IMG/VR virus record: IMGVR_UViG_3300031578_006465
Origin: a virus
Direction: 5' to 3' (one strand)
Length of the DNA stretch: 13,456 bases
Below the pieces are notes generated by a model that did no database searches, was not told the DNA's origin, and was given only the letters and a program-made list of their open reading frames with translations. Each line of letters begins with the position of its first letter. Position 1 is the first letter of the stretch. A program made the position numbers and the translations under genes. Positions 7,432-8,303 of the stretch are shown piece after piece.

Positions 7432-7505
7432 GCCGGGGTAGCCCAACTGGCAGAGGCGCTGGTTTTAGGAACCAGATGTTGCAGGTTCGACTCCTGTCCC
7501 CGGCA
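7432..7505 (+). tRNA. class-I-like tRNA (short variable arm) with Leu-type anticodon TAG and G37
   Basis: Acceptor GCCGGGG/CCCCGGC. Anticodon arm CTGGT-TTTAGGA-ACCAG. Variable loop ATGTT. T-arm GCAGG-TTCGACT-CCTGT. Discriminator A. CCA incomplete (CCG). Confidence 0.65.
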
Positions 7506-7512
7506 CCGTTGA

Positions 7513-7812
7513 TTGGAGGCTGTTTTGTTTTTCGACGATCTCGACATTGCTGTGAGGGTGAAAACACCCGAAGACGCGTTGGCGTCTCTTCGGGTGATTC
7601 GGAGATATCAAGCCAACGCCGACAAAGAGATCGAGATAGCCAATGCGCTAGGAGACATCTTCTTCAGAATGGTTGATCTGCGTTTTCCCGAGCGCAAACG
7701 AGAGACGGTCAGGCAGCTGTACTTGCGGGCGGTGGGCATCGAAGACTTCTCGCAGTACTGCCTGGACGCCGCCATAAGGCTGCTTAGAAGTACACCGACA
7801 ATCGGGGCGTAA
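7513..7812 (+). CDS. hypothetical protein, about 95-99 aa; start uncertain (TTG 7513 or TTG 7525 after GGAGG)
   Basis: ORF in the track. GGAGG at 7515..7519. No recognisable motif. Confidence 0.45.
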   Translation: MEAVLFFDDLDIAVRVKTPEDALASLRVIRRYQANADKEIEIANALGDIFFRMVDLRFPERKRETVRQLYLRAVGIEDFSQYCLDAAIRLLRSTPTIGA

Positions 7813-7820
7813 GTCTCAGT

Positions 7821-7907
7821 GCCGACGTGGTGAAACTGGTATACGCGCTAGCTTCAGGTGCTAGTGGGGGCAACCCCGTGGAGGTTCGAGTCCTCTCGTC
7901 GGCACCA
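7821..7907 (+). tRNA. tRNA-Leu, anticodon CAG, class II
   Basis: 87 nt. Acceptor GCCGACG/CGTCGGC. Anticodon arm CTAGC-TTCAGGT-GCTAG (G37). Long variable arm TGGGGGCAACCCCGT. T-arm GGAGG-TTCGAGT-CCTCT. A, CCA. Confidence 0.8.
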
Positions 7908-8226
7908 AATACAACGGTTGCCAGCACGGCAGCCATGGGTACAATGTGGGCGCGACCACTCTCTTCGCTTAGCCTCGGAGGGACGAAGGCGTGGATAGGA
8001 CAGGCGCCCTGACGCGCCAATGGCACATATGGGCAAAACAAAGTGGTCCACGATTAAGGAAAAAAGCTATCACCCGTTGTGGGTGAGGTCGTCAAACCCT
8101 CGACTTTGCGGTATTGGCGGGGAAACCCTAGCCCGGTGATGGGTGGTATACTCGCCATTCTACATACGCCCCTGTCCGGGGCTTACTATGGTTGGAGGGG
8201 CGCTCGCGCGCGGCCCCTCCCACTTT

Positions 8227-8303
8227 GCTCAGGTGGCGCAACTGGCAGTCGCGCGTGGCTGAGGGCCACGTTGTTGGAGGTTCGAATCCTCTCCTGAGCA
8301 CCA
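8227..8303 (+). tRNA. class-I-like tRNA with Leu-type anticodon GAG and G37
   Basis: Acceptor GCTCAGG/CCTGAGC. D-arm GCGC-AACTGGCAG-TCGC. Anticodon arm CGTGG-CTGAGGG-CCACG. Variable loop TTGTT. T-arm GGAGG-TTCGAAT-CCTCT. A, CCA. Confidence 0.65.

Follow-up and report, generated by a model that had tools for sequence, protein, structure and literature searches.

Two genes in a 13,456-nt stretch of viral DNA (the window, analysed at its full length) place leucine anticodons on tRNA bodies of class I shape. The question raised by this locus is whether these genes encode structurally minimised leucine tRNAs or tRNAs that are charged with another amino acid, as in recoding or mistranslation. Both readings had been offered in an earlier note on this DNA.

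Structure and setting of the three leucine tRNA genes

ARAGORN and Rfam agree on both short genes, at the sites and with the leucine anticodons (TAG and GAG) that the earlier note had assigned to them. The first, a class I tRNA-Leu with anticodon UAG, lies at 7432..7507 on the plus strand (Rfam, 7432..7505, 59.9 bits). It has the acceptor stem GCCGGGG/CCCCGGC, a 3-bp D stem (GCC/GGC) followed by a C13-A22 mismatch, the anticodon loop UUUAGGA and a 5-nt variable loop, AUGUU, and its CCA end is encoded as CC only. The second, a class I tRNA-Leu with anticodon GAG (8227..8303, +; Rfam, 8227..8300, 51.8 bits), has the acceptor stem GCUCAGG/CCUGAGC, a 3-bp D stem (GCG/CGC) with a C13-U22 mismatch, the anticodon loop CUGAGGG, a 5-nt variable loop, UUGUU, and an encoded CCA; an additional pair, G26-U44, appears in its ARAGORN drawing. 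In agreement with the initial description, the ARAGORN drawings and the Rfam alignment place a 5-nt variable loop, G37 and A73 in both molecules, and both carry U48. The anticodon register was checked with the covariance model, which reads UAG from UUUAGGA and GAG from CUGAGGG, the same as ARAGORN. The D loop is AACUGGCAG in both short tRNAs (A14 A15 C U G18 G19 C A20a G21), and their T loops are UUCGACU and UUCGAAU. Between the two genes, as had also been described, lies a class II tRNA-Leu with anticodon CAG (7821..7907, +; ARAGORN; Rfam, 7821..7904, 48.9 bits). This tRNA, whose variable arm measures 15 nt (4-bp stem, 4-nt loop), has an encoded CCA, A15:U48, A73 and the same Leu-type D arm as the short tRNAs, with U at position 21, which is G in the two class I genes. 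The Rfam covariance alignment itself marks 13:22 as non-Watson-Crick in all three leucine tRNAs. The stems of both short tRNAs are flawless. All three leucine tRNAs are matched over their full length by RF00005 (gathering score 29; model positions 1-71 of 71 for the short pair), and the scores of the short pair fall inside the range of the other 26 tRNAs. Thermodynamic folding alone leads to four-way junctions for both.

The three genes belong to an array of 29 co-oriented tRNA genes (ARAGORN), all on the plus strand, with interspersed small ORFs (103..12420, +; ARAGORN, Rfam). An overlapping contig continues the array upstream with three class II tRNA-Ser genes and with genes for tRNA-Lys, tRNA-Trp and tRNA-Met. 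The array was assembled in two separate JGI samples at 99.8-99.97% identity and is therefore no assembly artefact. Within it, the serine and tyrosine tRNAs are long-armed (tRNA-Tyr, 4437..4523, is 87 nt in length), as is one of the three leucine genes. The 3' CCA is incomplete in 4 of the 29 genes (His, 7342..7414; Leu-UAG, 7432..7507; Met-CAT, 8312..8385; Asn, 6011..6083), and the array thus depends on a CCA-adding enzyme. At the start of the window, a 919-aa ORF (152..2911, +) with major-vault-protein shoulder and repeat domains has more than 4,500 homologues in metagenomes and MAGs; its nearest annotated relatives, at ~41% identity, are from the uncultured huge phages LR756500, LR756501 and LR756503. 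The window is a huge-phage-like contig that carries a large phage tRNA array. A megablast search of 6900-8500 against the phage collection gave no near DNA match, an exact D-arm scan of viral contigs returned nothing, and no comparable tRNA array was found beside the vault-like gene in loci L001, LR756500 and L125-L127. In locus L125, whose vault-like protein is 67% identical to that of the window, a HisRS-like fragment (278..949; tRNA-synt_His and tRNA-synt_2b domains) lies near the vault-like gene, which hints that synthetase-like genes are carried by this phage group.

Several other features of the array were recorded. A 99-aa ORF between tRNAs has no homologue but itself, the contigs that encode it being the same phage (>99.8% identity). 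Two cysteine-rich small ORFs (3924..4442 and 8450..8914, +), the first of which has weak matches to NinG and to a RecA-dependent nuclease, resemble the HNH/homing endonuclease genes that other phages carry within their tRNA clusters, an example being the HNH gene of Escherichia phage heid. In the 320-nt spacer between tRNA-Leu(CAG) and tRNA-Leu(GAG) (7908..8226, +), neither a tRNA nor an Rfam match at E<=1 was found, and its ORFs, which are short and mechanical (57-85 aa, both strands), are unconvincing. A sigma-70-like TTGCCA-16-TACAAT (7918..7945) lies within it, and a GC-rich hairpin immediately precedes the GAG tRNA; a scan for promoters and terminators near the leucine genes found nothing above chance. 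Finally, the heptamer TTTAGGA of the UAG anticodon loop does have a second copy (3606..3612), as had been noticed. The link drawn from it to a "permuted unit 2" does not stand: the two copies compare with 0.52 expected, and since two or more copies arose in 21 of 200 shuffles, the recurrence is not significant and is a coincidence. This second copy lies inside one of two tandem elements (3423..3559 and 3579..3710, +) that resemble Rfam YrlA, a bacterial Y RNA-like, tRNA-mimicking family, at 40.6 bits (E 1e-6) and 56.7 bits (E 3e-11), both under the gathering score of 69. These YrlA-like elements are probably what the earlier note called permuted tRNA units.

Leucine identity elements and the meaning of CTC

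For E. coli LeuRS, A73, the A15-U48 pair, G18G19 and A20a are listed as essential, and the long arm is dispensable and no identity element (Giege and Eriani 2023, PMC9976931). When the two short tRNAs are compared with the LeuRS determinants, a check that had been proposed for them, the full E. coli-type set is present in both. Each carries U8, A14, A15 and U48, which provide U8-A14 and the A15:U48 pair; G18G19 is placed by a 4+3 D loop with A20a, and the T loop is able to form G18:U55 and G19:C56. The feature absent from both is the long variable arm of the class II shape. To place these elements in a wider set, a composite leucine signature (A14, A15:U48, 4+3 D loop, A20a, mismatched 13:22 and A73) was scored on 1,275 phage tRNAs. 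The signature is found in 130 of 194 class I tRNA-Leu, 17 of 44 class II tRNA-Leu and 1 of 1,037 non-Leu phage tRNAs, and within the window the three leucine tRNAs are the only ones to have it.

The same comparison speaks against charging with another amino acid. The short tRNAs bear no foreign identity element: their 3:70 pair is C-G or U-A, not G-U, the long arm of SerRS substrates is missing, and the anticodon loop has the normal 7 nt and is not enlarged. Most other synthetases read the anticodon, which in both short tRNAs is that of leucine. A73 excludes tryptophan identity (the discriminator is G73 in 56 of 56 phage tRNA-Trp), and A15:U48 stands where proline identity calls for G15:C48 (PMC9976931). 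The tRNA-Ala(tgc) of the window (4979..5052, +) has the expected G3:U70, and the array thus obeys ordinary identity rules. This tRNA-Ala is itself a weak call (35 bits, with an odd 14-nt D arm), and the same positions match tmRNA below threshold (24.5 bits, E 4e-7).

The meaning of leucine codons was read from an alignment of the 919-aa protein of the window with 119 homologues, as the fraction of leucine in the homologues at each leucine codon. The mean fraction is 0.58 at CTC (16 sites), 0.60 at CTG (47 sites) and 0.63 at TTG (9 sites); for the comparison codons it is 0.02-0.03 (GTG, TTC and AAG) or 0.07-0.08 (GCC and GTC). CTC, the codon of the class I GAG tRNA, aligns with leucine about as often as CTG does and therefore means leucine, a result at odds with the proposed recoding. 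CTA is absent from this gene and rare in the window (12 codons), and the codon test speaks to CTC and the GAG tRNA, not to the UAG tRNA.

The short-armed tRNA-Leu family in phages and bacteria

The class I leucine architecture is found in at least 120 viral contigs of IMG/VR, which were scanned with a pattern that combines a D loop of leucine type, G37 next to an NAG anticodon and a T loop at class I distance; by the analysts' own estimate, from ~18 fully specified bases, fewer than one chance match to this pattern is expected. Conservation of A14, A15, G18, G19 and A20a in the set so selected is partly by construction, and only U48, A73, the 13:22 mismatch and the unselected members with CAA or UAA anticodons are independent of the pattern. 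At the pattern-matched viral loci (at least 120 contigs), ARAGORN counts, with short defined as under 80 nt, are 193 short and 42 long genes for all tRNA-Leu. Outside the pattern selection, tRNA-Leu(CAA) is short in 23 cases and long in 10, and tRNA-Leu(UAA) is short in 20 and long in 23. The corresponding counts are 2 short and 75 long for tRNA-Ser, and 1 short and 30 long for tRNA-Tyr. A second viral scan, which used a generic T-loop pattern only, provided a small, nearly unbiased sample in which 5 of 15 tRNA-Leu are short-armed, as are 1 of 23 tRNA-Ser and 1 of 15 tRNA-Tyr. Among the class II families of these phages, arm loss is confined to leucine, and serine and tyrosine tRNAs keep the long arm.

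The unselected members resemble the window pair at the positions that matter for leucine identity. With short taken as a variable loop of at most 6 nt, there are 44 short CAA/UAA tRNAs; 40 of the 44 have A15:U48, 43 of the 44 have A73, and A22 stands opposite position 13. Position 37 is A in these tRNAs and G in the NAG members. Judged from sequence, this split by anticodon is the pattern of genuine tRNA-Leu isoacceptors, and such covariation of position 37 with the anticodon is a further point against recoding. The D arm of the UAG tRNA, GCCCAACUGGCAGAGGC, is identical in 14 viral loci, to which the 74-nt architecture is common, and its variable loop, AUGUU, is the commonest in the family. 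Cultured phages also carry short-armed genes, under the plain annotation tRNA-Leu. Escherichia phage heid (Felixounavirus, host E. coli K-12) has three of 76-78 nt, beside a class II tRNA-Tyr of 87 nt and class II tRNA-Ser of 89 and 92 nt, and all leucine genes in its tRNA cluster are class I. Further examples are found in Pseudomonas phage vB_PseuGesM_254 (74 and 75 nt), Prochlorococcus phage P-SSM7 (73 nt), the crAss-like Bacteroides phage DAC15 (80 nt) and Streptomyces phage SparkleGoddess (76 nt).

In bacteria, the class I leucine pattern is matched in at least 120 species genomes (loci L128-L247). All of the matched bacterial loci listed are called tRNA-Leu, with lengths of 73-77 nt and the anticodons UAG, CAG or GAG. 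The matches listed are mostly from Actinomycetota (Pseudonocardiales, Kribbella, Nonomuraea, Nakamurella and Acidimicrobiia), with some from Armatimonadota and Chryseobacterium; example loci are L132, L135, L136, L173, L174 and L223. Among the matches listed, the class I tRNA-Leu is the sole tRNA within 8 kb in 72 loci, and two groups share a gene neighbourhood. In one group of 12-16 loci, the tRNA adjoins genes for Ham1/RdgB and RNase PH and a glutamate-racemase-like gene. In the other, of 15-25 Pseudonocardiales loci, it lies downstream of conserved ORFs, one of which encodes a TetR-family regulator (15 loci). This synteny suggests that the short-armed tRNA-Leu is a chromosomal gene in several Actinomycetota lineages, where it looks like a vertically inherited one.

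Covariation was followed in 231 unique 74-nt sequences from phages and bacteria. The family was defined operationally by the 74-nt frame, a 17-nt D arm (3-bp stem, 13:22 mismatch), a 5-nt variable loop, a leucine anticodon and A73, and both short tRNAs of the window fit its frame. Each of the 20 stem pairs is canonical in 97-100% of the 231 members, and 18 of the 20 occur as 3-6 pair types; partners shifted by one position pair, for the most part, far more rarely. Position 13:22 is canonical in 1% of members and C-A in 191. Of the 231 members, 230 have A73 and 229 have A15:U48, in which U48 lies outside the search pattern. Stems that remain canonical and covary across 231 members do not show the pattern of decaying pseudogenes.

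The best relatives of the short tRNAs are 80-86% identical (nearest family members, 82% and 86%), and tRNA-Leu(GAG) is 86% identical to a class I tRNA-Leu of a viral locus (L067). A blastn search with tRNA-Leu(GAG) gave no match, and BLAST with tRNA-Leu(UAG) gave mycobacteriophage tRNA-Trp and tRNA-Pro, at 78-80% over ~60 nt, so sequence similarity alone does not settle the ancestry of the latter. Ranked by similarity over the whole core, the groups closest to either short tRNA are class I and then class II tRNA-Leu; in the case of the UAG tRNA, class II leads only narrowly, its best score being tied with Asp. When the acceptor and D arm are ranked, class I and then class II tRNA-Leu are top for the GAG tRNA only, and class II tRNA-Leu falls outside the top seven groups for the UAG tRNA. 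Descent from tRNA-Trp or tRNA-Pro is contradicted by G73 or G15:C48 together with other D-loop geometry in those tRNAs. A recent origin by duplication of the adjoining class II CAG gene, with later deletion of the arm, is not supported either: core identities between class II and class I reach at most 0.81-0.84.

Proposed function, rival readings and known systems

The two genes very probably encode minimised, genuine leucine tRNAs that would be charged by a bacterial-type LeuRS and act as functional elongators. The earlier suggestion of structurally minimised leucine tRNAs is supported by the complete LeuRS identity set and by membership in a large, covarying short-armed family. In the proposed sequence of events, a class II tRNA-Leu would have been reduced to the 74-nt class I shape by loss of its long arm. 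The short tRNAs would be expressed by transcription within the large tRNA array of the phage and matured by host enzymes; since the UAG gene encodes CC only, its tRNA would need CCA completion. A bacterial-type LeuRS is predicted to leucylate both through A73 and a hinge of the D and T loops (U8-A14, A15:U48, G18G19 placement and A20a), and not through the anticodon or a long arm. G36-G37 would fit the m1G37 context, as in normal CUN-reading tRNA-Leu. On the ribosome, the UAG tRNA would read CUA and CUG, and possibly more with a modified U34, and the GAG tRNA would read CUC and CUU, both supplementing the class II CAG tRNA. The leucine-specific domain of LeuRS senses the loop size of the variable arm (PMC3643597), and Aquifex LeuRS responds to how the arm is oriented. 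Some hosts could therefore charge an arm-less tRNA less well, and leucylation efficiency may vary with the host.

Leucine identity is also kept by a second account, which takes the arm loss as adaptive, an escape from factors that recognise the class II shape. Under such selection, tRNA nucleases or nucleotidyltransferase toxins would be evaded and CUN decoding would be kept when the host tRNA-Leu is attacked. It has been proposed that phage tRNAs evolve so as to evade defences directed at tRNA (PMC10264068; also discussed in a bioRxiv preprint), and both the share of class I genes in the small near-unbiased sample and the occurrence of the architecture in so many viral contigs are consistent with this idea. 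However, the arm has been lost only in the class II family whose bacterial synthetase ignores it, which fits relaxed constraint equally, and class I tRNA-Leu also occupies apparently housekeeping bacterial loci, for which a role of defence escape is less evident. Escape is considered an unlikely, though conceivable, cause of the arm loss. Somewhat more doubtful is the broader proposal that the short-armed form makes up about a third of phage tRNA-Leu, as well as the chromosomal tRNA-Leu(UAG) of several Actinomycetota, and was selected in phages by escape.

That the genes are decaying, non-functional tRNA-Leu copies, pseudogenes left by deletion of the variable arm, is highly improbable. Such decay would suit the position of a functional class II tRNA-Leu between them and the incomplete CCA of the UAG gene. 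It is opposed by the flawless stems and ordinary Rfam scores, by an architecture kept with abundant compensatory changes in 231 distinct phage and bacterial sequences, by phages such as heid with only class I leucine genes in the tRNA cluster, and by the conserved chromosomal neighbourhood of class I tRNA-Leu(UAG) in several Actinomycetota lineages. Least credible of all is a leucine anticodon on the body of another synthetase's tRNA, with CUN read as another amino acid: reviews describe the class I shape as unusual for tRNA-Leu, the UAG tRNA resembles phage tRNA-Trp and tRNA-Pro in BLAST, and CUN reassignment has precedents in yeast mitochondrial tRNA-Thr(UAG) and Ashbya tRNA-Ala(UAG) (PMC7609411), but the leucine hinge signature is complete and CTC aligns with leucine.

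If, as preferred here, the pair are genuine leucine tRNAs, CUN codons in the window stand for leucine, and nothing exotic is required to explain the unusual tRNAs. Short-armed tRNA-Leu genes with the complete LeuRS set are common in phages and also occur in conserved bacterial chromosomal loci, and they would confirm in nature what was found in vitro, that the arm is ignored by bacterial LeuRS. They bear on tRNA annotation pipelines, on which phage tRNA-Leu scaffolds to choose in code engineering, and on whether tRNA-targeting defences shape phage tRNAs. Phage tRNA-Leu scaffolds were reportedly used in a swapped-code paper in Nature in 2023. According to a 2023 review, the long arm is present in tRNA-Leu of all organisms but animal mitochondria (PMC9976931), a statement that public sequence data contradict. 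In full-text literature searches, no paper was found that describes class I tRNA-Leu as occurring naturally in a phage or a bacterium, which is not proof that none exists. Public annotation nevertheless already includes short-armed tRNA-Leu, and the biochemical reasoning behind it has been published. The window pair is an ordinary example of this family, which as a whole is worth a census.

Compared with the cultured-phage genes of heid, P-SSM7 and SparkleGoddess (73-80 nt), the window pair, although from a different phage lineage, has the same 74-nt architecture, with a 3-bp D stem, an AAYUGGYAG D loop, a 5-nt variable loop that closes with U48, A73, and leucine anticodons. The D arm of heid tRNA-Leu(UAG), GCCCAACUGGUAGAGGC, is near-identical to that of the window UAG tRNA, whereas position 37 is A in heid and G in the window. 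Relative to canonical bacterial class II tRNA-Leu (that of E. coli and the window CAG tRNA), A73, U8-A14, A15:U48, G18G19, A20a, the 3-bp D stem, the 13:22 mismatch and G37 with NAG anticodons are the same, and 5 unpaired nt stand in for the variable stem-loop of 10-15 nt. The CUN-reassigning mitochondrial tRNA-Thr(UAG) of yeast and tRNA-Ala(UAG) of Ashbya are class I bodies with UAG, like the window UAG tRNA; what marks those tRNAs as foreign, either G3:U70 or a His-derived body whose anticodon loop has 8 nt, is absent from the window tRNAs. Animal mitochondrial tRNA-Leu is a natural class I tRNA that lacks the long arm and is recognised mainly via A73 and A14 (PMC9976931). In contrast to the degenerate D and T loops and dedicated synthetase of the mitochondrial tRNAs, the window tRNAs have canonical loops and would presumably be served by a bacterial LeuRS. 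The closest biochemical parallel is engineered arm-less E. coli tRNA-Leu, which is charged by LeuRS if A73 and the D/T-loop contacts are intact (PMC9976931). Those variants are laboratory constructs, some of them also without an anticodon arm, whereas the window genes are natural and have a normal anticodon arm, and they keep exactly the features that the engineered tRNAs need.
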